Below the pieces are notes generated by a model. That model was given only the letters and a program-made list of their open reading frames with translations. It was not told where the DNA came from and made no database searches. Shown one piece after another: positions 21,439 through 59,715 of a stretch of DNA of 64,000 bases (positions are counted from its first letter, which is position 1; each line of letters opens with the position of its first letter). The stretch comes from a phage: the sequence record PX880101.1. One strand, 5' to 3'. Both the position numbers and the translations under genes were made by a program.

Positions 21439-21708
21439 ATGTTATACCAGCAGTACGAACTTCGTGCAGAAAAAGAATTAAATTTTGACAAAGATATTCA
21501 CAGATATTATTATGGGAAAGTTAGAGGGCAAGCAAGAAAGTGTACTCCAACACTCTTTTATGCCAGCAGACGACTAGCGCCAGAAGAGGCAACAGCAGAA
21601 AGGGTTGCATATGGCTGGAGAGTTGCGTATGATATTGACAGATCCGATGTGATGTCTGTTTTGGAAAACTTTGAAAACACTTACACACAAGTAGAGGACT
21701 TTTACTAA
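21439..21708 (+). CDS. hypothetical protein
   Basis: 89-aa ORF, RBS aaggag. Confidence 0.5.
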   Translation: MLYQQYELRAEKELNFDKDIHRYYYGKVRGQARKCTPTLFYASRRLAPEEATAERVAYGWRVAYDIDRSDVMSVLENFENTYTQVEDFY

Positions 21709-22892
21709 TGTCAAGAAACGTATTCGAAAGTGGTCAAATCACTGTCCGCGAGTTGCCAGCTATTATTCAATTTGCCCAGCGTCATAACCGATCTGTCCTG
21801 ATTTTAGGACCGATGGGCGTGGGGAAGAGCCAGGTGATGAAGCAGATTGCTGATAATATGTTCGGTGAGCGAGATGACAACCTGGTTGACGTGCGGTTGT
21901 CAGATAAAGATCCTGCTGACTTATCTGGGCTACCTATCCCTGTAGAGTCGGATGGGACTACACGCACAGTGTTTGCAATTCCAGAATTTTGGCCTGCAGA
22001 TCCGGACTGGAGCGGAATTATCTTTCTAGATGAGCTTACTCATGCAGATAACTACCTGCAGAAGGTTGCAATGCAAATTATGCTCGACCACAAGTGCGGC
22101 ACCTATGCATTTCCTAAGGGCTCTGTTTTTGTAGCTGCAGGTAACCGTGCTACAGACGGTGCTGTTCTTTCGGCGCTCGAAGCTCCTCTAGCTAACCGCT
22201 TTATCATTGTAGAAGTTACAAGCAGTGCAGAGGTGTTTATTGAGGACTATGCATTCCTTAATGGGGTGCACTCCTCGGTAATTGGATATCTGAAAAGAGT
22301 CCCATCAGCCATCGATAATTATGAGGCCATGGCTGAGATTAATTGTCCATCTTTTGCTACACCGCGATCTTGGGTTGCTGCATCTGACATCCTGCACGAT
22401 TTTGACAGCGGTATTATTTCTGACGCTATGACCCGTGTCCTTCTACAAGGTGCAATTGGTCACACTGCAGCGGTAGAAATTTGGACCTACCACACCAAGA
22501 AACGAAACTTGCCAGAAATCGGTCGGATTATGGCAGGAGGCTGCAAAGAATATGTAGGTCCTAAGCAGCCAGACATCTTGTGGATTCTGGGGTCTGAAGG
22601 TTGTATCGCTATTCGTAATATGATGGAAAATGCAAGTATCTCCGACGAAGATCTCGTCAGCTGTGTGGCAAACTTCCTTGATTTCCTTTGGGAAAATTTC
22701 AAGGATGAGAACCGAGACTTTGTATTCTCAGTCTTTATGGCGATGATGAAACCTAACGCCTTAGGAAATGCCTTGCTTATTGGTAAAGGCAGGGACAAGA
22801 TCGTTGCTCAGCTGATCAAAGCATACCCAAACCTGATGAAGATTGTAAAAGAGTTTGGTGAAGAGTTTAGCGCCATTTTAGCTAAAGCTTGA
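21708..22892 (+). CDS. MoxR/AAA_5-like AAA+ ATPase
   Basis: Walker A ILGPMGVGKSQ, Walker B IIFLDELTHA, sensor-1-like AAGNRATDG; 394 aa. Confidence 0.65.
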   Translation: MSRNVFESGQITVRELPAIIQFAQRHNRSVLILGPMGVGKSQVMKQIADNMFGERDDNLVDVRLSDKDPADLSGLPIPVESDGTTRTVFAIPEFWPADPDWSGIIFLDELTHADNYLQKVAMQIMLDHKCGTYAFPKGSVFVAAGNRATDGAVLSALEAPLANRFIIVEVTSSAEVFIEDYAFLNGVHSSVIGYLKRVPSAIDNYEAMAEINCPSFATPRSWVAASDILHDFDSGIISDAMTRVLLQGAIGHTAAVEIWTYHTKKRNLPEIGRIMAGGCKEYVGPKQPDILWILGSEGCIAIRNMMENASISDEDLVSCVANFLDFLWENFKDENRDFVFSVFMAMMKPNALGNALLIGKGRDKIVAQLIKAYPNLMKIVKEFGEEFSAILAKA

Positions 22893-22901
22893 GGAGGTTG
22901 T

Positions 22902-23282
22902 ATGGCTAAAGTAGGTAAGCGGGGAAACTACTTGGTGGTATTGACCGAGGAGCCGGAGAAGGAGTACGAATGCAGCTCCACTTGTGTGATCGATATCCGA
23001 GAAAAAGATGTGGATGAAATCTGGTTTAAAATACTGGACGCTTGCGACAGCAGTGACTATTTCTTCATCTATGTCAACGATAAAGCGGGGTTCTTCCATG
23101 ACGATGGGGAATTACCGTATGAAATCTATGAACTTGTAGAGGCTTGCCATCGTGGAGATGCGGAGTTGTTTGGTCTACGGCTGAAAAGCGGTAAATTCTT
23201 CTATCAAGATGAATGCATGAATCTTCACAACTTCGTAGAGGGGACTTGCAACGATGGAGAGATTTTGGCACACTACGATTAA
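22902..23282 (+). CDS. hypothetical protein
   Basis: 126-aa ORF, RBS gaggagg. Confidence 0.5.
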   Translation: MAKVGKRGNYLVVLTEEPEKEYECSSTCVIDIREKDVDEIWFKILDACDSSDYFFIYVNDKAGFFHDDGELPYEIYELVEACHRGDAELFGLRLKSGKFFYQDECMNLHNFVEGTCNDGEILAHYD

Positions 23283-23295
23283 TTTCTAAGACACA

Positions 23296-23322
23296 CCCCG
23301 CTTCGGCGGGGATTTTCTATTT
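23296..23322 (+). terminator. intrinsic terminator
   Basis: ccccg-cttcgg-cgggg hairpin followed by attttctattt. Confidence 0.6.
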
Positions 23323-23331
23323 GGAGCTATT

Positions 23332-23832
23332 GTGAAAATTAAAATCTTTGCTATTATTTTGAGCGCATTTTTATCGCTGCCTGTTGTTGCAGCACCAAAA
23401 CAAAAAGTATATCACACTTGCAAGCCGTCGGATACTAAGGAAAACATTCTAGCATGCAATATCTACAGGGAGGCTAGAGGGGATGGCACGATGGGTATGC
23501 TGGCATCCGGATTTGCCACACTAAACAGGAAATCTCACCCCAAATACCCAGACACTATAAGAAAGATTGTCTACCAACCTAACCAGTTTTCGTGGACAAA
23601 CCACGGCAAAACTTTTAAGGTGACAGAAAAAGATTCATGGGATCACGCTAAAAGTCTTGCAAAGATGCTTCTAAAGGTCTATAATAACAACCATGTTGCA
23701 TACATGGCTATGGATATAACAGGCGGAGCAACACACTACCATACAACAAAAGTACGACCGAAATGGGCAAAAAAGATGCAGAGGACAGCTCAATTCGGGA
23801 GCCATATCTACTACAAGGAGCGCAATAAATGA
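23332..23832 (+). CDS. secreted cell-wall hydrolase (SleB/Hydrolase_2-like)
   Basis: GTG start; N-terminal signal peptide KIKIFAIILSAFLSLPVVAAP; motifs NIYREARGDG, ATLNRK, NQFSWTN, GGATHYH resemble the SleB cell-wall hydrolase family. Confidence 0.6.
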   Translation: MKIKIFAIILSAFLSLPVVAAPKQKVYHTCKPSDTKENILACNIYREARGDGTMGMLASGFATLNRKSHPKYPDTIRKIVYQPNQFSWTNHGKTFKVTEKDSWDHAKSLAKMLLKVYNNNHVAYMAMDITGGATHYHTTKVRPKWAKKMQRTAQFGSHIYYKERNK

Positions 23833-25811
23833 TTGTAAACAGCAATGAAATTAAAGCGGTGCTAACTGGGAACATGGAGGTCACCAGGGGCTCAATTTCT
23901 CTGAACAAAGAGACTTTTGGGCTAATCATTAAAGGGATTTACGAAGATAAGGTGCTGGCAAGCTGCCGTGAACCAATCTTCAATGCTGTGGACTCCCATG
24001 TTGAGTCTGGACGGGGTGATGTACCGATCATCATTCACTCCCCTACAGACCTTGAACCATACTTCTTTGTGCAGGACGTTGGATTGGGTATGTCAGAAGA
24101 GATGGTCCGCAACACTTTCATGAACCTCGGGGAGTCAACCAAGCGCAACAGCAACGCTCTGGTAGGTAATAAAGGTGTAGGTTCAAAGGCCCCGTTCAGC
24201 ATGGTGGACACTTTCGATGTGATTAGTGTGCACAACGGTGTTGAAAGCACATATCTATTGTTCTTGGATCAGGGTATCCCAAACGTTACCAAGATCCGCG
24301 AGCGGAAGACTGAAGAGCACAACGGGGTAAAAGTTCAGTTCCATGTTAAGAAAGAGCATGTTCTGAAATATCGCACTGCTATTGCGTCATGCCTACGCTA
24401 TGCAAAGTTTCCGTTTACCGTTACCGACCCTATGACCAGTAAGATGCTGGAAGGTGACAAGGTTGAGGCGCAGTATTGCTACGAGAAAGATGGTTGGAAA
24501 ATGACTATCCTGAAAGGTTATACCAGCTCTGATGAGAGCCGTGTTGTGATGGGTCACCAACCTTACCGCTCTAAGTTCCTGGAGACATTGACCGATTACC
24601 CTGCAATCTGCGTGGAAATTCCTATTGGGGATTGCAATATTAACCCTGGGCGTGAATGGACCATAGAGGGCCATGACGACGGTGGATTCCAGGATCGCCT
24701 GGAGGCCTTTGTCAAAGAAGGTATACGTCTTCGCGGGGCAGAAGTTGTTGCAGAACTGGAGACGGCAAAAACCTCCGCAGAAGCACGTGAAATGATGAAG
24801 AATAGTGGGGTGTTCGGACACATCTTCGGCAAAAACTTTATGTGGAACCGTTGGGAAGAAACAGGACTTGGAGACTTAGGCGATTGTGAAATTTTCGCTG
24901 GCGGCTTAAATAAAGGCCGCATAGGCTATGCTCGTTATGGAAAGTCAGAGTTCTTACGGGGAGTCTATTTAGTATTTAACGACGGAGACGGCAAATATAA
25001 CCGAAATAAGTGTAACTACTTAAGCGAGATCACCGGACGCAACGTTTTCTATTGCCGTAACACGGATCTGGTGGAAGAGTTTAAAGAAGCGGCACACCAC
25101 CCGTTCTTTGCAGATACGGTCAAATTGTTATCAGAGCTCCCTCGCCGACCTGTCAAGAAAGGTGAAACAAAAACTCGTTATGAGCCAGGCTATTGGGTTA
25201 AAAAACTTGAGAAGGATGGTTACTTCCGCCGTGAGCGTATTACTAAGGCAGAGTTCCGGAAGATTAAACACTGCATCCCTTATGAGGGTGATATCCAACG
25301 TGGAAGTTGTTGGCTGGGGCAGATGAGTAACATCTACCAGCAAGATTATGACCGTGTACGTGCGGCACTTCAGATTCCTGAAGGTGAAGATCTGTATCTG
25401 GTATCTGAATCTCGTCTGCTTTGGACTGATCCTGATTGCCAGTATGTTACAGAGAAGAATGTGGAGCACCTGTTGAAAGAGGATGCTTGGAAATTCTTAC
25501 TGACCCGTGCAGCAAATGAGACTTCTTATGACAACCTGTATAGACAATTAGGGAAAATTATTCCCATGCAAGATTTTGGAAATTATCGGCCACATTTCCA
25601 CAAGTGGGAAGGTAACACCACGTGGAAGCACAGTGAGCTAAATCATCGTGCCAAAATCTTAATCGCCAACCGAGTTAAGTGCGGGAAGGCCTATATTGCA
25701 AGATTGGAAAAGAAATACCCACTTTTGAAGCATGTAGGCTTGAAATATTGGGACACCCCTGCTATGATTGAATACCGTGAGCTGATTGATACAAAGAATA
25801 ACACCAAATAA
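23829..25811 (+). CDS. GHKL (Bergerat-fold) ATPase-domain protein
   Basis: N-box EPIFNAVD (ExxxNxxD), G1 box QDVGLGM (DxGxG), G2 box GNKGVGSKA (GxxGxG) in canonical order and spacing in the N-terminal 120 aa; no Toprim motif seen. Confidence 0.55.
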   Translation: MIVNSNEIKAVLTGNMEVTRGSISLNKETFGLIIKGIYEDKVLASCREPIFNAVDSHVESGRGDVPIIIHSPTDLEPYFFVQDVGLGMSEEMVRNTFMNLGESTKRNSNALVGNKGVGSKAPFSMVDTFDVISVHNGVESTYLLFLDQGIPNVTKIRERKTEEHNGVKVQFHVKKEHVLKYRTAIASCLRYAKFPFTVTDPMTSKMLEGDKVEAQYCYEKDGWKMTILKGYTSSDESRVVMGHQPYRSKFLETLTDYPAICVEIPIGDCNINPGREWTIEGHDDGGFQDRLEAFVKEGIRLRGAEVVAELETAKTSAEAREMMKNSGVFGHIFGKNFMWNRWEETGLGDLGDCEIFAGGLNKGRIGYARYGKSEFLRGVYLVFNDGDGKYNRNKCNYLSEITGRNVFYCRNTDLVEEFKEAAHHPFFADTVKLLSELPRRPVKKGETKTRYEPGYWVKKLEKDGYFRRERITKAEFRKIKHCIPYEGDIQRGSCWLGQMSNIYQQDYDRVRAALQIPEGEDLYLVSESRLLWTDPDCQYVTEKNVEHLLKEDAWKFLLTRAANETSYDNLYRQLGKIIPMQDFGNYRPHFHKWEGNTTWKHSELNHRAKILIANRVKCGKAYIARLEKKYPLLKHVGLKYWDTPAMIEYRELIDTKNNTK

Positions 25812-25821
25812 GGAGACAGTT

Positions 25822-27027
25822 ATGATTTTCATCTACGAACACTTCAAGACTCGTAAAGAAGCACGCGACCGCCGTGCAGAACTTGAGAAGAAGGGTTTCA
25901 CATGTGCCATTGAGAAAGGCGACACAACCTGGACACTGGCAGTTGGTGCCCCAGAGTTGTTCGATCCTGACCGTGACAGCGTCTGCTACACCCGTGAGGA
26001 TTTTGAAACCCGCGAAGAGGCCCGTTTATTTCGATACGGTCTGGAAGATAACGGTAAGTACGCTATGATCTTAGACTTAGGCGAAGGTTCCGTTAAACGT
26101 TGGGGCGTGGTATACCCACTGTGTGTTGTTCACGGTGTGGGGTTCACTGGGGTGGCAATCAAGTCAGAAGAACCTTTAGTAGAAGTCAAAGACCCGGTGC
26201 TGGAGGTGGTGAGCAGTGTGTCTGAGCAACAGACTCGAAGCATCGAGCCTTTAGTAGTTATTTGTGGGGAACTCCTCCAGATCACCTGCAACGAAGGCAT
26301 TTTTGAAATTCGCCGCAGCGAAAGTGAGGAAGTTTACCAGAAAGTCTTCGACCATATCTCTGTTCAGGAATATGATGAGGCAATTGGTGAAATCCTTGTC
26401 TGGCTGGAACGCAAGAATGAGTTCACCACACTTGCAGACAACCTGATCATGAAAGATGGTAAGCTCTACTACTACGGTGTAGAGATGCGATCCACCATCG
26501 CAAAGAAAATTGAGAAAGATTATGCAGACGGAACACTGGATGACCGCTATGTGAAATTCCTCGTTCGCCTGCTACGCAATCCTTCTGCAAAATCTGTAAA
26601 CATGCTCTACGGTTTTATGCAGGCCAATGATATTCAGATTGCAGAAGATGGTCGAATCATTTGCTACAAAGGGGTTCAGTTTAACGGCAGCAAGTGGGTG
26701 GATTGGCACAGTGGTAAAGTCCCACAATACCAAGGTGCTTTTGTATCCATGCCTCGTAACTTTGTAGAGGATGATCCTGAAGCTGCGTGCTCCTATGGCT
26801 TACACTGCGCCAGCAAAGAGTATGCGAAGAGCTACGGCACTGTAATGACTGTTATGGTTGACCCTGCAGATGTGGTTAGTGTGCCATACCAACACAATAG
26901 CGCTAAGTGCCGTGCATGCCGCTATGAGATTGTGGTAGCTCCGGAAGCACGCAAGGACGGAGACCCGATTGAATACGTGGTTGACCGAGACGGTAACACT
27001 ATCGACATTCTTTACGAGGAGGCGTAA
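25822..27027 (+). CDS. hypothetical protein (possible partner of the GHKL ATPase)
   Basis: ORF is open from 25786, but ATG at 25822 follows RBS aaggaga; 401 aa. Confidence 0.5.
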   Translation: MIFIYEHFKTRKEARDRRAELEKKGFTCAIEKGDTTWTLAVGAPELFDPDRDSVCYTREDFETREEARLFRYGLEDNGKYAMILDLGEGSVKRWGVVYPLCVVHGVGFTGVAIKSEEPLVEVKDPVLEVVSSVSEQQTRSIEPLVVICGELLQITCNEGIFEIRRSESEEVYQKVFDHISVQEYDEAIGEILVWLERKNEFTTLADNLIMKDGKLYYYGVEMRSTIAKKIEKDYADGTLDDRYVKFLVRLLRNPSAKSVNMLYGFMQANDIQIAEDGRIICYKGVQFNGSKWVDWHSGKVPQYQGAFVSMPRNFVEDDPEAACSYGLHCASKEYAKSYGTVMTVMVDPADVVSVPYQHNSAKCRACRYEIVVAPEARKDGDPIEYVVDRDGNTIDILYEEA

Positions 27028-28397
27028 TGGAAAAAGGGCAGTATGATGTAGGCACAGATGCTGCCCTTGTTGCAATCATGAGTGGGGAGAATGTCTTCGT
27101 TTCAGGACCCGCAGGTTGTGGGAAGACGTACCTCATCAACATGATCCAGTCAATGTATGGAGACTCTTGCATAACGGTTGCCCCGACAGGGGTAGCCGCT
27201 TTAAACGTTAATGGAGCAACAGCACACCGAACCTTCGATCTTGCAGCAGGTGTGAGCATGGAGTCTGACTGGACTGCAATAAGGGCAAAAACAGCAAAGC
27301 CTTTGAAAAGCAAGGCATTTACCATCCTAATTATCGATGAAATCTCTATGATCCGTGCTGATAAGTTTATAGAGATGGATAGGAAACTCCGCTTCCTTCG
27401 AAAAAATGACAAACCTTTCGGAGGCATACAGGTCATATTGTTTGGCGATTTTTACCAGGCACCTCCTGTTGTCTCTTCTATGGAGAAGGAGGCCTACTTC
27501 AACTTCTACCACACAGACCTATGTTGCTATACCGAATCTTGGAAAGAGTTGGACCTTCACAACATAGCCCTAATAGACCAGTTCCGACAGGAGTCTATTC
27601 GATTTGCCACAATGCTCAACTGTGTTCGTGAGGGTCGTCGCATAAAAGAGGTTGTAGCAGAACTTAATGCTCGCTGTTACAAAGGCGGTGTACCAACAGA
27701 CGCTCTCACAATTTGCGCCACCAACAAACAAGCAGAGGAAGTGAACAGAAGGTTCTATGATGCCATCAACGCCCCAGAGAAGGTATACACTGGTGAAATG
27801 AAGGGTAAGTTTCCCTCCACCCTGCCAGTTGAGCAGGAGATGAAGTTGAAAATTGGCATGAAAGTTATGATAACCGCCAACGATGTTGACCCGACGCACA
27901 AAGTACCTTATTATGTTAACGGAACACGTGCCACAATTGTTAAATTTAAGAACAAGGCGGTGGTGGTAGAGCTTGAAGATGGAACACAGGTTGACATAGA
28001 GCAGAGGTTGTGGGAAAATAACGAGTATAAGCCATCTCAGAGATACAACATTGCAGAAAGGAAGATGGAGAAGTTTATAGAGAGGGTAGTGATTGGATCA
28101 TACAAGCAACTTCCTCTGAAATCTGGGTACGCCGTAACATCTCATAAAAGTCAAGGACTTACGCTAGATTGTTACAACCTAGACCTTGGAAAGAACGGAG
28201 CTTTCTCTCCTGGGATGACGTATGTCGCTTTGAGTAGAGTTAAGACAATACAAGGAATAAACTTGTTGCGTCCACTAAGAGAGGTTGACATTATTGTTGA
28301 CCCGCGAGTCGTAGAGTTTTACAATACAACATTCCCTGACTTAGACAAAATTGTCAGGAAAGATTTTGAAACCAGAGCAGAAGAGGGGGACGTATGA
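27027..28397 (+). CDS. Dda/RecD-like superfamily-1 DNA helicase
   Basis: Walker A GPAGCGKTYL, Walker B ILIIDEISM, conserved AVTSHKSQGLTLD motif. Confidence 0.7.
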   Translation: MEKGQYDVGTDAALVAIMSGENVFVSGPAGCGKTYLINMIQSMYGDSCITVAPTGVAALNVNGATAHRTFDLAAGVSMESDWTAIRAKTAKPLKSKAFTILIIDEISMIRADKFIEMDRKLRFLRKNDKPFGGIQVILFGDFYQAPPVVSSMEKEAYFNFYHTDLCCYTESWKELDLHNIALIDQFRQESIRFATMLNCVREGRRIKEVVAELNARCYKGGVPTDALTICATNKQAEEVNRRFYDAINAPEKVYTGEMKGKFPSTLPVEQEMKLKIGMKVMITANDVDPTHKVPYYVNGTRATIVKFKNKAVVVELEDGTQVDIEQRLWENNEYKPSQRYNIAERKMEKFIERVVIGSYKQLPLKSGYAVTSHKSQGLTLDCYNLDLGKNGAFSPGMTYVALSRVKTIQGINLLRPLREVDIIVDPRVVEFYNTTFPDLDKIVRKDFETRAEEGDV

Positions 28398-32930: not shown

Positions 32931-35360
32931 ATGAGCATGTGGTCGTTCGATTTTGAGTCATCCGGTTTGCTGGAAGACCCAGATCTTTATTATCACTGCG
33001 GTCTGTTTAAAGAGCTGAATAAGAACCGTTTTATGCTGTTCCTTCCTCTAAATGACCGCACACACTACTCCGAGGAGGATATAGAAAAGGCTAAGAACTT
33101 CATTCTGGCAAAGAAAACTCTTTATAAAGATTTTGAAGTTCGCATAGCAGATTTTTCGGAGTTGGAAGGTTGGCTTACAGGCAATTCCGACTGGTCACCA
33201 ACAGCTTTGAACTGCCATAACTGCTACAGTTATGACTTTATGCTGATGGAGAGATTGTCCGGTATTCATTTTGATATGTTCCGTGATCCTAAATGCATGG
33301 GGACTATCAACGACCACCAGGTTAACCTGTTTGATACGTTGGCGATGAGCCGAATTTTGTGGCCTGATCGCCCTCTACCAAAAGGTTGTCCGGACGCTGT
33401 ATTCAACCCGGTTACTAAGAAAATGCAGCCTGTTGGTCCTCACGGCCTTATGGCATGGGGCTACGCCCTTGGTAACCAGAAAGTTCAAATTGATGACTGG
33501 CGCGATCTTCCGTTGTGGAAGTATGTGGATCGTGTATTCGAGGACGTTATCATCCAGGAGCTGCTCTGGAAAGAGCTGGTAGCGGAATCAAAAGGTGTAT
33601 TCTACGGCAAATCTGACATGCAGAACTTTATGTACGATCCTGCCAAAGAGAAGCCGAAAGGGTTCAAGAAGATCACCTGGAAGAACGCATTACGCCGGGG
33701 TATGCTGCAGCACTTCCTGATGGAGCTGCAGGCCCGTCAGGGTGTATATTTCGACATAGATGGAGCTATTGCTTTACGTGACCGTTGTGATGCGTGGATG
33801 AAAGAGATCGCTGATCGTGTTGAACCTCAACTTCCTTTAAAAGAGTTGTCAATGTCTCAGCGGCCCAAGTTCCCTGAAAAGCCGTTTAACCAAGATGGGA
33901 CAATCTCCAATAATGGTTGGAAATGGTTAAAAGATAAGCTTGGCTATCCTGTGGACATGAGCGCTTTAGAGTTCAAAGCCCCACCTAAGCGAGCATTTAC
34001 CTCCACAGGGGATGTCAGTAAGATGGGGATAAAATGGTGTGAAGAGATGGGCTGTAAAGACCCTGATAAGATGGCTGATTTCTTGAGGGGCTATATTAAG
34101 GGCACCTCCACACCACAACCTTTACCTAAAGAGCTAATGGATCAGGCAATAAGTGATCTACAGCAGAAGCGAATGCCTGACTGCAAGATACCTATGAAAA
34201 TCAGCAATCAGGACGACATTAAGCGATACCTGATCAGTGCTGGTTGGCTTCCGACAATGTGGAGAACTAAGGATGTAACTAAAGACAGCAAGAAGAAAGC
34301 TCTACCTGATGCAGATGTTGATGCACGAGTATATGCATATATGGACGAGCTTTTAGAGTCAGAGTATTGTGACCTGATTATCAACTTCTGGAACAAAACT
34401 GATGCTAAGTTCCAGACAACCGTGCACAAGTTCCGAAGCTTTCCTAACTCCGAAAGGATTAAAAAGGAAGTATTCGGGAAAATACGTAGAAAAGCCAGGG
34501 CACTTATTACTTCTCCGCAACTGAAAGATACGTTTGGACACCTATGTCCGAATCTTGAAAAATTGAACGGAGAGATGGCTAAAGATATCGTCTTGTGGTT
34601 ATCCTTGCGAAACCGCAGATCGGTCCTTGATCCAATCAAGGAGGATAAGGTTGATACTGGTCTTCTTAATCACCCACGTTTGAAGATTGACCATAAGCTT
34701 CCTGCTAAAAGTTCTGGATTAACAAACACTTCCCGACAGAAACACAGTATTTGTGCGAACATGCCTAAACCATCTCCTAAAGTGGTTATGGGTAAAGAGA
34801 TGCGTAGTCTGTGGGGTGTTCCTCCAGGATACTTTGAGATTGGTATTGACGGGTCCAACTTAGAGCAGCTTATCGGGGCTTGGGGTGCCTTTGAGTTCGA
34901 CAACGGCTTGTATTATGATGTTGTAAGTAACGGGGACGCACACCAAAACAATGCTGAGGCATATACAAAAGTAGCAGGTAGAGAGGTGTCTCGTAACGAC
35001 GGTAAACCTATCACGTATGGGGTTATGTATGGGGCACAAAAAGATAAAGTTGCAGATATGCTGGACATCTCTCCAGAGTTGGGACAAAGGGTAATCGATG
35101 CACTCTGGGATGCCAACCCAGGTCTTAAGGGGCGCAAAGAGGATCTGGAGAAATTCTGGGAAGCAACAGGTAAGAAGTTTATCTACTCTTTTGATGGTCA
35201 TGCTATCTGGACCCGATCTAAACACTCTTTACTTAATGCATACCAACAAAATGGCGGTGCATCGTTGTGTGACTTAGTTGGAATACTCATGCACCACCAG
35301 ATGGTGAAGCGTGGGTGGTACGATGAAGGTGTTCGTCGTATTATTTATTACCATAAATAA
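32931..35360 (+). CDS. family-A DNA polymerase, 5' exon with 3'-5' exonuclease and polymerase motifs A and B (inferred splice donor after 35354)
   Basis: Exo I FDFESSGL; motif A IGIDGSNLEQL; O-helix region RNDGKPITYGVMYG; the ORF stops at …RRIIYYHK* exactly where motif C (HDE) should follow. Confidence 0.75.
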   Translation: MSMWSFDFESSGLLEDPDLYYHCGLFKELNKNRFMLFLPLNDRTHYSEEDIEKAKNFILAKKTLYKDFEVRIADFSELEGWLTGNSDWSPTALNCHNCYSYDFMLMERLSGIHFDMFRDPKCMGTINDHQVNLFDTLAMSRILWPDRPLPKGCPDAVFNPVTKKMQPVGPHGLMAWGYALGNQKVQIDDWRDLPLWKYVDRVFEDVIIQELLWKELVAESKGVFYGKSDMQNFMYDPAKEKPKGFKKITWKNALRRGMLQHFLMELQARQGVYFDIDGAIALRDRCDAWMKEIADRVEPQLPLKELSMSQRPKFPEKPFNQDGTISNNGWKWLKDKLGYPVDMSALEFKAPPKRAFTSTGDVSKMGIKWCEEMGCKDPDKMADFLRGYIKGTSTPQPLPKELMDQAISDLQQKRMPDCKIPMKISNQDDIKRYLISAGWLPTMWRTKDVTKDSKKKALPDADVDARVYAYMDELLESEYCDLIINFWNKTDAKFQTTVHKFRSFPNSERIKKEVFGKIRRKARALITSPQLKDTFGHLCPNLEKLNGEMAKDIVLWLSLRNRRSVLDPIKEDKVDTGLLNHPRLKIDHKLPAKSSGLTNTSRQKHSICANMPKPSPKVVMGKEMRSLWGVPPGYFEIGIDGSNLEQLIGAWGAFEFDNGLYYDVVSNGDAHQNNAEAYTKVAGREVSRNDGKPITYGVMYGAQKDKVADMLDISPELGQRVIDALWDANPGLKGRKEDLEKFWEATGKKFIYSFDGHAIWTRSKHSLLNAYQQNGGASLCDLVGILMHHQMVKRGWYDEGVRRIIYYHK

Positions 35361-56282: not shown

Positions 56283-56300
56283 TTTCTTAACTAAACTATC

Positions 56301-56328
56301 AGGGGCTTTAAAAGGCCCCTTTCTTTTT
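56301..56328 (+). terminator. intrinsic terminator closing the early array
   Basis: aggggc-tttaaaag-gcccct followed by ttcttttt. Confidence 0.65.
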
Positions 56329-58805
56329 GTCTGTATTTCTCCTACCACAAACGGCCCAGCCTGGCAAGTGGAATAATTGACTAGCCATCAATCCCACACA
56401 CTGTACAAATATACATGGAAAATAACTATTGCATAATTTTTCATTGTGTGGTAGCAAGTCCATTTTTACCCGTTTTCTCTCTCAAAATTGCACGTAATGC
56501 CGCTATTGCACAAATTTTAACCTGATGCACATCTCCAATATCTTGTCAACAACTAAAAATCTTTATAAGTCATACACTTACACAGCATCGAAAGCGTGTT
56601 CTACGCGAAAAATCGAGTATAACTATAGCCGCCAGATCTCAGAATTCACGTACGCACGCCATTCTATAGCCTGCAAAGTATTTATTCCAACCACAGAATA
56701 ACGGAATAGTCAATACCTGCATAAAATAATTATTCGTGTAAACTGCATAACATAAATCAGCTCAGGTGTCAACATTTTTCGTAAACAGTCCGAAATTATC
56801 ACGATGAGTTATCATAAACAGAGAAATCTTTAGTCGTCTAATGTTTACTGTACATTACTATACTGACTGGAATCATTAGATGACTAAGAGAAAGATAAGA
56901 AATAATTAATAATGTAATTATTTTACCTGTAACAATAAGGCAACTATGCAAACGAATGGCATGGCGCGACGGAGTCGCGACATAATATAAAAGCAGTAAC
57001 CATCACCCCCGTGATAGTTTGTCTGCAATCTATTAATCAGATCATAGTTGCCTTGTATTCAGTTAATCATGACATAATAAGCAAGGCAACTATAGATCTG
57101 CTAATAGTTGCCCTGCTTTTATATTATGTCATAGAAACACCCGAAGGGGTGACCAAAGGTCACCTGGCATGGCCAGTGAAAGATTATTAACTTGTTAATT
57201 GTTAACTTGCTAATTGTTTTCATGCAAACGAATGTCATGGCTTATCCTATCTGTGTAAACAGTTAAGGTGTAAACTATCCAGGCGTAAACAGTCTATGCG
57301 GGAACAATCTATACGTGAACAGTGAAACATGAAATAATAACAATCGTTATTGTGTCGAAAGTGTATAAGGTGTCATAGTATGTCAGACAAGTTTTTCTCC
57401 TCTTTGTCAAGTGCTGCATGAAAATTTACAAACTGGTATGGTAGCATTTTTGCGGCCCTGTTTACATTCAGTTGTGTATGTATAACCCTTGTTGTGTGGG
57501 CGTTTAGACGTCTGGACGGTTGGAAGTCTACAGGTCAATATCTAATCTATTGGCTGCTAACTATATCCCACACAAATAGTAAGAAATACAATTGTTATGT
57601 GAGTAAACGGTAACTCATGTTATCAATCCCTGTATGGATCGCCAGTGGTGCGCATAATGGGTATTATGTTAAATTGCCCGTAATGATAACTATTCTCACA
57701 ATGATAGGTATTCTCATTCACTCCCACAAGATAGGTTGCAAATGTTGTGCCACTGTGTGAACGGCCTCACCTATTAATTTGCCTCACTGCCTCGATATTT
57801 GAGAATTGTTATAAGAATGAGAAGTATTCCCATTTCGTCCGCCTGGCAGCACTCCAGTCGCTACCGCTCATGACAGGGCAGAACTGGGTCCATTCAGATA
57901 TTTCTGGCTGACTCTTCAGGTCTGTGTGGGAAAAGCCAACCTCTCCGGCGGGGCAGGGGTAGGTCAATTAAAAAATTTACGTGGTGTATGAAGAGCCCTT
58001 CAGGTAAGGCATGTATTATGGGATGAAACACCCTTCAGGCAATGATATTTGTGGGTGGGATATTTGCTGGAAAGCCAGATATGACGGGACTCCTGGCGGG
58101 GCAGGGGTAGTACAGACAGGGGAAATATGGTGGATGTAGTTGGGTGGATTGATCAGGCAGGTAGAGTATGGAATATGTTACAAGTATGTTAAATATGGAG
58201 GATGAATATCTGTAGGATTTGTGTGTAAAATCAAAGACTTAAGTGGTGTTGTGGTATTTTCTATAAATAATTCAAGTTTAATAGGTAATATTTGTCTCTA
58301 TCCGCTTTGTGTGGTAAACAAATTCAGATGGTGTTGGTTTACAAGTGTATACATAATATACAAATTAAAGATACAAGAAACCCCCCTCCCCCTTCGGCTA
58401 CCATTCACCTTTTCCTCTGACTGGTACTTAAACACTTATTCAGACTCTTCAGGTTATCACCCATATATCATATGGCAGTGACTGGTGTCCTCCGGCCCCT
58501 CTTTCGTCACCCGTCCGCTTCGCCATGCTAATGCCATAGCCAACGGTTCGGTTGTTCACCCTGTTCACTCAGGTGTATCTCCATACCCCTTCAAACCGAA
58601 GAGAACAGAAAACCCGAATTACTCGGTAAAAGAAAAGAGAAGAACTTAATTTTATCAGGATAGGCAAGAATGTCAAGGCATGACTGCTCACTAAACAAGC
58701 AAACAGTCATGTGTGGAAGGTAAGTGATTGTGGTGGTAGGAAATTTAGTTGAAAGATGTGTTATAGGTGCGCTTCCAGCACTTTAGCCGGGCAGCTAATT
58801 GTGTG
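56329..58805. other. 2.5-kb ORF-free, repeat-dense region between convergent gene blocks
   Basis: No ORF with an RBS. 18-bp inverted repeat gacataatataaaagcag (56979-56996 and 57113-57130); hairpins cgcgac-gga-gtcgcg (56965) and ggtgacc-aaa-ggtcacc (57148); direct repeats atgcaaacgaatgNcatggc (56946, 57231); gtaaacagt-like iterons (57252-57325); ctggcggggcaggggtag twice (57935, 58093). Confidence 0.5.
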
Positions 58806-59021
58806 TCAGTCCAGCGGTTCATCCTCTACTTCACTGAAATCAATGTTCATGGTCTCTTCCCAACCATCGATCTCAGCACAAGAGTGGAGTTCTTTAGGGT
58901 TTACTCCCAAAGCCTCAGCAACAGAGTCTATATTTAACACCTCTGGCAGGTATGATTCATCGAATTCAAGGTAAATCAGGCCACGAGTGTTGTCAGCTCC
59001 ACCAAATATTTCTATCTTCAT
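58806..59021 (-). CDS. small acidic hypothetical protein
   Basis: 71-aa ORF; last gene of the leftward array. Confidence 0.45.
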   Translation of the reverse strand: MKIEIFGGADNTRGLIYLEFDESYLPEVLNIDSVAEALGVNPKELHSCAEIDGWEETMNIDFSEVEDEPLD

Positions 59022-59142
59022 AAAATCTCCTCTGGAAATGAGAGTGTGAACAGGGTTTTATACGTTCTAATGCACAGGAATTATACACGTTTTCCTCTTC
59101 AGGCCATGCTTTAGCATGAGGAACCTGTGTGGGCTCGGTGCT

Positions 59143-59355
59143 TCATAGTCTACCACCCCTGAACTCTTCGTGCTCAGGCATAATAGAGAACCAGATATCT
59201 ACGATGTCTTCCCACGTTAGGTCATCAGCCTCAGGATCTACCTGGAGCGAAGATGGAGAATCTTCAGAATCGAAGTTTTCCTCTTTCACTGGCTCAGCCA
59301 AGGGACATATAGTCACTCCTTTGGATGTCTCTTCAGATGCATGTGTGTTTATCAT
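59143..59355 (-). CDS. small acidic hypothetical protein
   Basis: 70-aa ORF. Confidence 0.45.
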   Translation of the reverse strand: MINTHASEETSKGVTICPLAEPVKEENFDSEDSPSSLQVDPEADDLTWEDIVDIWFSIMPEHEEFRGGRL

Positions 59356-59453
59356 GTTCCACCCGTGAGTATTCCGGCAACAGCCGCTATGGACGTAATG
59401 ATCATCAGGATCACCACTAAAACTTCGGACAATGTTCTCATTGTGTACCTCAT
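59352..59453 (-). CDS. small membrane peptide (33 aa)
   Basis: Not in ORF track; RBS ggaga; hydrophobic LVVILMIITSIAAVAGIL; stop overlaps the next ATG as ATGA. Confidence 0.25.
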   Translation of the reverse strand: MRYTMRTLSEVLVVILMIITSIAAVAGILTGGT

Positions 59454-59660
59454 ATTCTCCAAACTATGTGTGGATACTATCACGAGAGTGGCAATGTGTC
59501 AACAGAAACGCCGCGAGGGTTTGGTTAAAATCCGAGCGTATGGTGATTTGGGTCAAAACGGACGTGCGTTCTCGCTACGCTCGAAATATGGAGTTGTTTG
59601 TAGGAAGCTCTTAAACGCTCTGTAATGAGATTATCTGTCCAAGGTATGCAATCGTGCACC

Positions 59661-59690
59661 AGATAAAGAAAAGGACGCCACAGAGCGTCC
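59661..59690 (-). terminator. intrinsic terminator (minus strand)
   Basis: On the minus strand: ggacgc-tctgtg-gcgtcc followed by ttttctttat. Confidence 0.55.
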
Positions 59691-59715
59691 TAGGTGTCTT
59701 AAATTTGATATTTTG

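Follow-up and report, generated by a model that had tools for sequence, protein, structure and literature searches.

The natural substrate of the Bacillus enzymes SleB and CwlJ is the spore cortex with its muramic delta-lactam, which is absent from E. coli. Their common catalytic fold (4F55 and 4FET; profile TIGR02869) carries the motif Y-x-E-[AS]-R-G, the glutamate of which is essential in SleB (PMC12331253), and CwlJ has a single-domain layout. SAR endolysins, as exemplified by P1 Lyz and R21 of phage 21, possess an N-terminal hydrophobic segment, and their muralytic domain passes the inner membrane by the Sec route before lysis. The SAR domain itself has low hydrophobicity and a high content of Gly, Ala and Ser, it stays uncleaved, and the enzyme that bears it is the essential endolysin of the phage. 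Tgl of the kayviruses is secreted and serves, beside the late endolysin LysK, as an additional endolysin of the lytic-transglycosylase type. It is expressed from an early-type promoter for the host RNA polymerase, and it is lytic or toxic in E. coli when expressed with its signal peptide (PMC7150955). The gene that is the subject of this analysis has a record of its own in the rV5-like phages. It was annotated in 2013 as gene 2 of rV5, a "cell wall hydrolase" of 166 aa with a pI of 10.0 and the domain PF07486 (Kropinski et al. 2013, Table S3). In 2020, signal-peptide-bearing SleB-like homologues were published for all genera of the Vequintavirinae; one such homologue, CB7_83, has a signal peptide and was toxic upon expression in E. 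coli ("data not shown") (Buttimer et al. 2020, PMC7344957). The dispensability of the gene was reported in a 2025 preprint (10.1101/2025.11.20.689424).

We analysed this gene in a window of 64,000 nucleotides of phage DNA (record PX880101.1), the whole of the stretch under study. The region shares 96-97% identity with Escherichia phages of the rV5-like genus Vequintavirus, and the gene is identical in kind to rV5 gene 2 and its Vequintavirinae orthologues, located between a T5.083-like hypothetical gene and rIIA and behind the terminator t003, with nothing material different and most relatives 95-99% identical. The hydrolase is an ordinary, known feature, in that the gene, domain, signal peptide, terminator and dispensability are all on record for rV5-like phages. 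It has the catalytic fold and motif of SleB and CwlJ, and its layout resembles that of CwlJ. It resembles the SAR endolysins in its N-terminal hydrophobic segment and in the predicted Sec passage of a muralytic domain, and differs from them in the strong hydrophobicity and the cleavage motif of that segment and in the dispensability of the gene. The likeness to Tgl, on paper, extends to a small glycan-strand-cleaving enzyme, a signal peptide, an early-type promoter and a separate major endolysin. Tgl, however, has an IsaA/SceD-type transglycosylase fold and a Gram-positive Staphylococcus host, whereas the phage hydrolase is of the Hydrolase_2 type; Tgl is known from biochemistry and localisation, and the phage hydrolase is likened to it from sequence and a model. 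Taken as an analogy, Tgl is the nearest worked example for how the hydrolase may act.

Family and fold of the hydrolase

The coding sequence (23332..23832, + strand) comprises 166 codons, is initiated at GTG and has a Shine-Dalgarno sequence, GGAG (23323..23326, +), 5 nt 5' of the start. We assign it as an exported-type SleB/CwlJ (Hydrolase_2) hydrolase from homology, a structural model and TA-site counts. The preliminary description of this DNA, made from the letters and from translated reading frames, had proposed a resemblance to the SleB/Hydrolase_2 family on account of the motifs NIYREARGDG, QFSWTN and GGATHYH. All three are present in the reading frame (residues 43-52, 85-90 and 131-137, respectively), and profile and structure searches confirmed the resemblance. 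Pfam Hydrolase_2 (PF07486) matched with E=2e-19 and 70.4 bits (cutoff 27) over profile positions 2-100 of 100, and PHROG 938 matched at E=2e-27. The sole solved structures matched by sequence (phmmer) were the SleB catalytic domains 4F55 and 4FET, in the alignment of which YREARGD of the hydrolase is paired with YGESRGE of SleB. The AlphaFold model from the single sequence was unusable (pLDDT 46), and an alignment-based model was used instead; the AF2 model from a 65-sequence alignment reached a pLDDT of 95. Its significant PDB matches in Foldseek were again limited to 4FET and 4F55 (probability 1.0, target-normalised TM 0.72-0.79), and dozens of phage "SleB" proteins matched it in the viral structure library.

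The homologue search depended on its mode: the word-indexed version gave 10 proteins, and the exhaustive version gave 11,334 clusters at E <= 0.001. The 65-sequence alignment shows no variation at Y45, E47 and R66, and the motif Y-x-E-[AS]-R-G is found in 148 of the best 150 family representatives. Glu47 (codon at 23470..23472, +), within Y-R-E-A-R-G, is the putative catalytic glutamate by its alignment with the corresponding motif of SleB. The family, the fold and the conservation of this glutamate are established. The protein is not SleB itself, since it has the SleB/CwlJ catalytic domain and lacks the N-terminal peptidoglycan-binding domain. The SleB equivalog profile (TIGR02869, spore_SleB) scored 48.3 bits, below its cutoff of 236.5, with profile positions 83-201 alone matching, and identity to Bacillus SleB is only 21-24%. 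In contrast to the Bacillus enzymes, the hydrolase is of the Sec-exported type and belongs to a phage of a Gram-negative host that has neither a spore cortex nor muramic delta-lactam. Homology makes a lytic transglycosylase probable; both the substrate and the chemistry are extrapolated, because E. coli lacks the muramic delta-lactam substrate of SleB and CwlJ. The only two cysteines, Cys30 and Cys42 (23419..23457, +), are kept as a pair in the Vequintavirinae-type subgroup (HxCK...LACN), a conservation that fits a possible periplasmic disulfide.

The N-terminal export signal

The signal-like segment reported earlier at the N-terminus was borne out. Residues 1-20 (23332..23391, +) constitute a predicted cleavable Sec signal peptide by hydropathy and composition, with the cleavage position given by the -3/-1 rule. 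Residues 1-21 are MKIK followed by IFAIILSAFLSLPVVAA. The n-region MKIK is basic, and the h-region, IFAIILSAFLSLPVV, is of 17 residues, 10 of which are strongly hydrophobic and six small; the best 11-residue Kyte-Doolittle mean of the N-terminus is 2.6. A proline stands at -4, and V-V-A↓A-P conforms to the -3/-1 rule, with small residues at both positions and no proline at +1. Signal peptidase I rejects proline at +1, which is the residue that the next candidate site would present there. Cleavage would thus be expected at VVA↓AP, to give a mature protein of ~146 aa with a pI of ~10. Because of the strong hydrophobicity and the signal-peptidase-type site, the segment has the look of a cleavable signal peptide and not of a signal anchor or a SAR domain. 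The export-type character of the N-terminus is established, and from it we infer a periplasmic location for the enzyme.

This character is retained among homologues even where the letters are not. In an 81%-identical relative (P0002), the signal sequence is different in letters and equivalent in character, and the same retention with divergence is seen in the homologues of Klebsiella phage KB57, Cronobacter phage CR9, Erwinia phage Hena1 and the T5-like phages. A signal-type N-terminus occurs in a Phapecoctavirus-like phage as well, and the VivaForever homologue likewise has an N-terminal signal peptide or anchor. The PAK_P4 homologue carries, instead of a classical signal peptide, an N-terminal TM anchor that looks uncleaved. 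A strongly hydrophobic N-terminal segment was present in 127 of 142 representatives (those among the best 150 in which 25 or more residues precede the motif).

Genomic context and transcription signals

The gene order is MoxR-like AAA ATPase (21708-22892, +; two genes 5' of the hydrolase), an acidic, T5.083-like hypothetical gene of 126 aa (22902-23282; directly 5'), the hydrolase, rIIA (23829..25811, +), rIIB and a helicase, followed later by primase and polymerase. The earlier placement of the gene inside a replication module was roughly right: the immediate downstream neighbours are rIIA and rIIB, and the helicase, primase and polymerase come after them. The ATG of rIIA overlaps the stop codon of the hydrolase (ATGA), which suggests translational coupling. 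The acidic gene at 22902-23282 was considered as a conserved partner or inhibitor of the hydrolase and was rejected, as no homologue of it lies near the hydrolase in the other lineages fetched.

An intrinsic terminator hairpin (23296..23322, +) abuts the ribosome-binding site of the hydrolase. It consists of CCCCGCTTCGGCGGGG, with the stem-loop CCCCGC-TTCG-GCGGGG, followed by ATTTTCTATTT, ends directly 5' of the ribosome-binding site, and is listed for rV5 as t003 (Kropinski et al. 2013, Table S4). In rV5 the hydrolase gene is contained in transcription unit 10-1-238-164, and the promoters are of the sigma-70 type (Kropinski et al. 2013). The nearest strong sigma-70-like promoter upstream, by consensus match, is TTGACA-17-TATTAT (21485..21513, +; 11/12). 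No consensus match was found between the hairpin and the ribosome-binding site, where there is no space for a promoter, so transcripts of the hydrolase must read through t003; the promoter at 21485..21513 is their likely source. A further promoter-like site, likewise a consensus match, lies within the hydrolase reading frame (TTGCAA-17-TATAAT, 23657..23685, +; 10/12) and could drive rIIA and rIIB independently of the hydrolase and of terminator read-through. The GTG start and the terminator directly 5' suggest low expression, and synthesis of the enzyme is probably both early and weak. Literature searches for transcriptome or timing data on rV5 gave nothing usable.

The hairpin is a recurrent feature. 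It is found directly 5' of the homologue in seven of the nine lineages examined (this phage, KB57, CR9, Hena1, PAK_P4, VivaForever and Mendera), which span unrelated phage groups, and in each case it is GC-rich and followed by a T-run. In VivaForever and Mendera a promoter-like site is located 3' of the hairpin. The T5-like locus has no hairpin upstream of its SleB-like gene. The recurrence may reflect selection to insulate or to limit the expression of a toxic enzyme.

Orthologues and distant homologues

The orthologues of the hydrolase include rV5 gene 2, bas51_0065, bas54_0065, CB7_83, CR3_087 and the FFH2 "SleB". The assignment of bas54_0065 is supported by the same gene order, the same gene lengths and TA-site counts identical to those of Bas54 (36/36 for the hydrolase, 22 for the upstream gene and 64 for the ATPase). 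The gene is present in every genus of the Vequintavirinae, and in more than 110 Vequintavirus genomes the reading frame is intact and the protein 95-99% conserved. Between 16 and 23 GenBank records named Campylobacter phage (MG0656xx) are 95-99% identical to the E. coli Vequintavirus region; a wrong host or name label, or mixed propagation cultures, is the likely explanation for them.

Homologues were found by tblastn in 1,266 phage records. Those of the T5-like phages (AKFV33 ORF81, JLBYU40_110), the pakpunaviruses (PAK_P4 gp154) and the phapecoctaviruses are 35-41% identical to the hydrolase, begin with a signal peptide or anchor, and are located in early or nucleotide-metabolism regions, with other neighbour genes than those of the present locus. 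The T5-like homologues sit in the early region of phages that have a separate lysozyme and holin, the PAK_P4 homologue is flanked by genes for DNA ligase and phosphoesterase, and the phapecoctaviruses carry both a Phage_lysozyme protein and a Hydrolase_2 protein; a separate canonical endolysin is thus present in the T5-like phages and phapecoctaviruses, as it is in the rV5-like group. The T5 homologue goes unmentioned in the main text of the CRISPRi-ART paper, and the work on "toxic phage products" (PNAS 2026) does not involve the hydrolase gene.

The position of the gene, far from any structural or lysis cluster, had been regarded as atypical. The comparison does not support that view, as lysis genes are scattered in the rV5-like group, with the endolysin at the ligase and the spanins at the terminase. 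The homologues of the T5-like phages, pakpunaviruses, phapecoctaviruses and other Vequintavirinae are likewise encoded among early or replication genes, which indicates that such a position is typical of this gene.

In certreviruses an overlapping 2-TM holin candidate lies by the SleB-like gene (Buttimer et al. 2020, PMC7344957). In Erwinia phage Hena1 the interval between the SleB-like gene and rIIA (L009, 3011-3244) encodes a protein of 77 aa for which three TM segments are predicted. It is a holin-like candidate, and the order of SleB-like gene, TM protein, rIIA and rIIB in Hena1 looks like a small envelope module.

Role of the hydrolase in infection

The preliminary description had left a choice between a signal-anchored endolysin exported by the Sec system and a secreted accessory muralytic enzyme. 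As the true endolysin, whether of the signal-peptide or the SAR type, the hydrolase would pass through Sec in advance, to be released or activated on membrane depolarisation. The union of an export signal and a muralytic fold in one protein is what this reading predicts, homologues are labelled "endolysin" in PHROG 938 and in many GenBank records, and the toxicity of an expressed homologue, as well as the small multi-TM holin-like gene that adjoins the homologue in certreviruses and Hena1, would agree with it. The endolysin of these phages, however, is a different enzyme. The annotated endolysin of WalterGehring, bas51_0211 (156 aa), adjoins the DNA ligase gene, and the spanins adjoin the terminase; endolysin and spanins are located outside the 64-kb window. 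In rV5 the product Gp89 was described as the "obvious lysin" (Kropinski et al. 2013), and LysECP26, which is 98% identical to the rV5 endolysin, lyses Gram-negative cells as a purified protein (PMC9728275). Transposon sequencing of the Vequintavirus Bas54 (HIDEN-SEQ) separated the two enzymes: the hydrolase gene bas54_0065 was hit at 32 of its 36 TA sites and is non-essential, whereas the endolysin bas54_0202 (24 TA sites), the i-spanin bas54_0001 (29 TA sites) and the o-spanin bas54_0002 (18 TA sites) received zero insertions (10.1101/2025.11.20.689424). In the same study, knockout of bas54_0065 had no detectable cost on E. coli K-12, and one comparison on a clinical isolate gave no sign of conditional essentiality for the gene (log2FC -0.88, adjusted p = 1) (10.1101/2025.11.20.689424). 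The gene is therefore not required for plaque formation or host lysis, to judge from its orthologue. It has no linked holin or spanin either: the absence of such neighbours noted earlier was upheld within the window, no small multi-TM ORF lies beside the hydrolase, and the 77-aa TM protein of Hena1 has no homologue in the 64 kb. The h-region, with its V-x-A motif, is unlike the Gly/Ala-rich segment of a SAR endolysin. The separate endolysin, the cleavable type of the signal peptide and the Bas54 data contradict the signal-anchored alternative; the transposon data largely refute the view of the hydrolase as the endolysin, which we regard as highly improbable. Two further readings were discarded. 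A 2-TM ORF at 23708-23929 (minus strand) was considered as a holin, and it is antisense to the hydrolase and rIIA and was taken as spurious. The mean insertion count of bas54_0065 (916, where other listed non-essential genes have ~120-800) was considered as a sign of a costly gene and was set aside, the site-to-site variance evidently being large.

The dispensability of the orthologue bears on two further explanations. SleB-type domains are found inside very large virion or internal proteins of some phages (BFVD hits of ~1100-1300 aa; DarB-like proteins), from which one might suppose that the hydrolase is a virion-associated lysin that pierces the wall at DNA injection. It is, however, small and stand-alone, bears a Sec signal peptide and is encoded outside the structural module; it is absent among the virion proteins named in the text of the rV5 proteome, the phage already has an essential baseplate spike/tail lysozyme, and the hydrolase gene can be lost. 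A role at injection is scarcely credible. A non-essential gene with a weak GTG start, placed directly 3' of a terminator, could also be a decaying remnant whose product is catalytically dead or vestigial. This is very unlikely, given an intact reading frame that is 95-99% conserved across the Vequintavirus genomes and present in every genus of the subfamily, the invariance of Glu47 and the core motifs, and a signal peptide that has kept its character despite drift of its sequence.

The main rival to the explanation that we prefer is remodelling for a purpose other than lysis, and it has the same anatomy. Here an early periplasmic enzyme would alter the sacculus or release anhydromuropeptides, with superinfection exclusion, counter-defence or an adjustment of growth or division as the outcome. 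The gene belongs to an early/middle unit with accessory and anti-defence genes, among them the MoxR ATPase two genes 5' that counters DS-28, and rIIA/rIIB follow directly 3' in probable translational coupling. Dispensability in the laboratory is typical of accessory and anti-defence genes, and the gene is conserved in a number of virulent phage groups that are unrelated to one another and in part have a working endolysin. The adjacency to rII may nonetheless be inherited synteny, as certreviruses that lack rII still keep the hydrolase gene; the one comparison on a clinical isolate showed no conditional essentiality of the orthologue; and the same facts are explained more simply by a helper role in lysis. 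We hold such remodelling to be rather unlikely, though a serious contender. Its specific form, in which the hydrolase is an early periplasmic peptidoglycan editor that blocks superinfection, blunts an envelope-linked defence or manages the envelope together with rIIA/rIIB, is marginally less probable still. If true, it would explain why the gene is retained outside the late genes in several unrelated groups of virulent phages, some with a full lysis kit of their own.

The second alternative of the preliminary description, a secreted accessory muralytic enzyme, fits the family, the export signal and the 32 of 36 TA sites hit. We consider it probable, with some reserve, that the hydrolase is a Sec-exported accessory periplasmic muralytic enzyme that supplements, and does not replace, lysis by holin, endolysin and spanins. 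In this mechanism the gene would be transcribed in the rightward early/middle unit from host-type sigma-70 promoters, and the GTG start and the intrinsic terminator would keep the product early and at a low level. The cleavable Sec signal peptide would deliver a basic mature protein of ~146 aa to the periplasm of the infected E. coli, where the single-domain SleB/CwlJ-family enzyme would cleave the glycan strands of peptidoglycan by means of Glu47. Its most likely role would be to cut nicks in the sacculus, or slacken it, from within the periplasm ahead of holin triggering, which may aid lysis under conditions that laboratory culture does not reproduce. Lysis of the host itself depends on the lysozyme-type endolysin (of the rV5 Gp89 or LysECP26 type) and the spanins encoded elsewhere in the genome. 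The genomic context is established, as is the fact that the orthologue is dispensable; the contribution to lysis is what we infer. Some considerations count against the accessory role. No transcription route for the hydrolase is evident if t003 is efficient, an early-active periplasmic enzyme would need a restraint and none was identified, and loss of the orthologue had no detectable cost on K-12 or in the one clinical-isolate comparison.

The automatic "endolysin" labels of PHROG 938 and of many GenBank records mislead for the Vequintavirinae, the essential endolysin of which is a different enzyme. The hydrolase represents a case of a widely conserved, exported-type, non-essential muralytic enzyme in large virulent phages.

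Other features of the window

Two other genes of the window have orthologues with host-dependent phenotypes in Bas54. The orthologue of the MoxR-like ATPase, bas54_0063, is dispensable on K-12 and required against the predicted defence DS-28 of E. coli CFE311. The helicase gene (27027-28397, +) corresponds to bas54_0068, which tolerated insertions on K-12 and was strongly depleted in the clinical-isolate comparison (log2FC -6.3); this helicase appears to be conditionally essential.

A stretch of ~3.4 kb without an ORF of at least 100 aa (~56283-59715) is located at the switch from + to - strand genes, and searches of it found no tRNA and no Rfam family. It corresponds to the "non-coding" box of rV5 and to a ~2-kb intergenic region of Bas54 with no transposon insertions, a correspondence that points to an essential non-coding element. 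A group I catalytic intron (RF00028; 35345-35580, +; 64.7 bits, E=4e-14) starts at the 3' end of the DNA polymerase ORF (809 aa; 32931-35360). Its location indicates that the polymerase gene is split, as in the joined CDS of WalterGehring.
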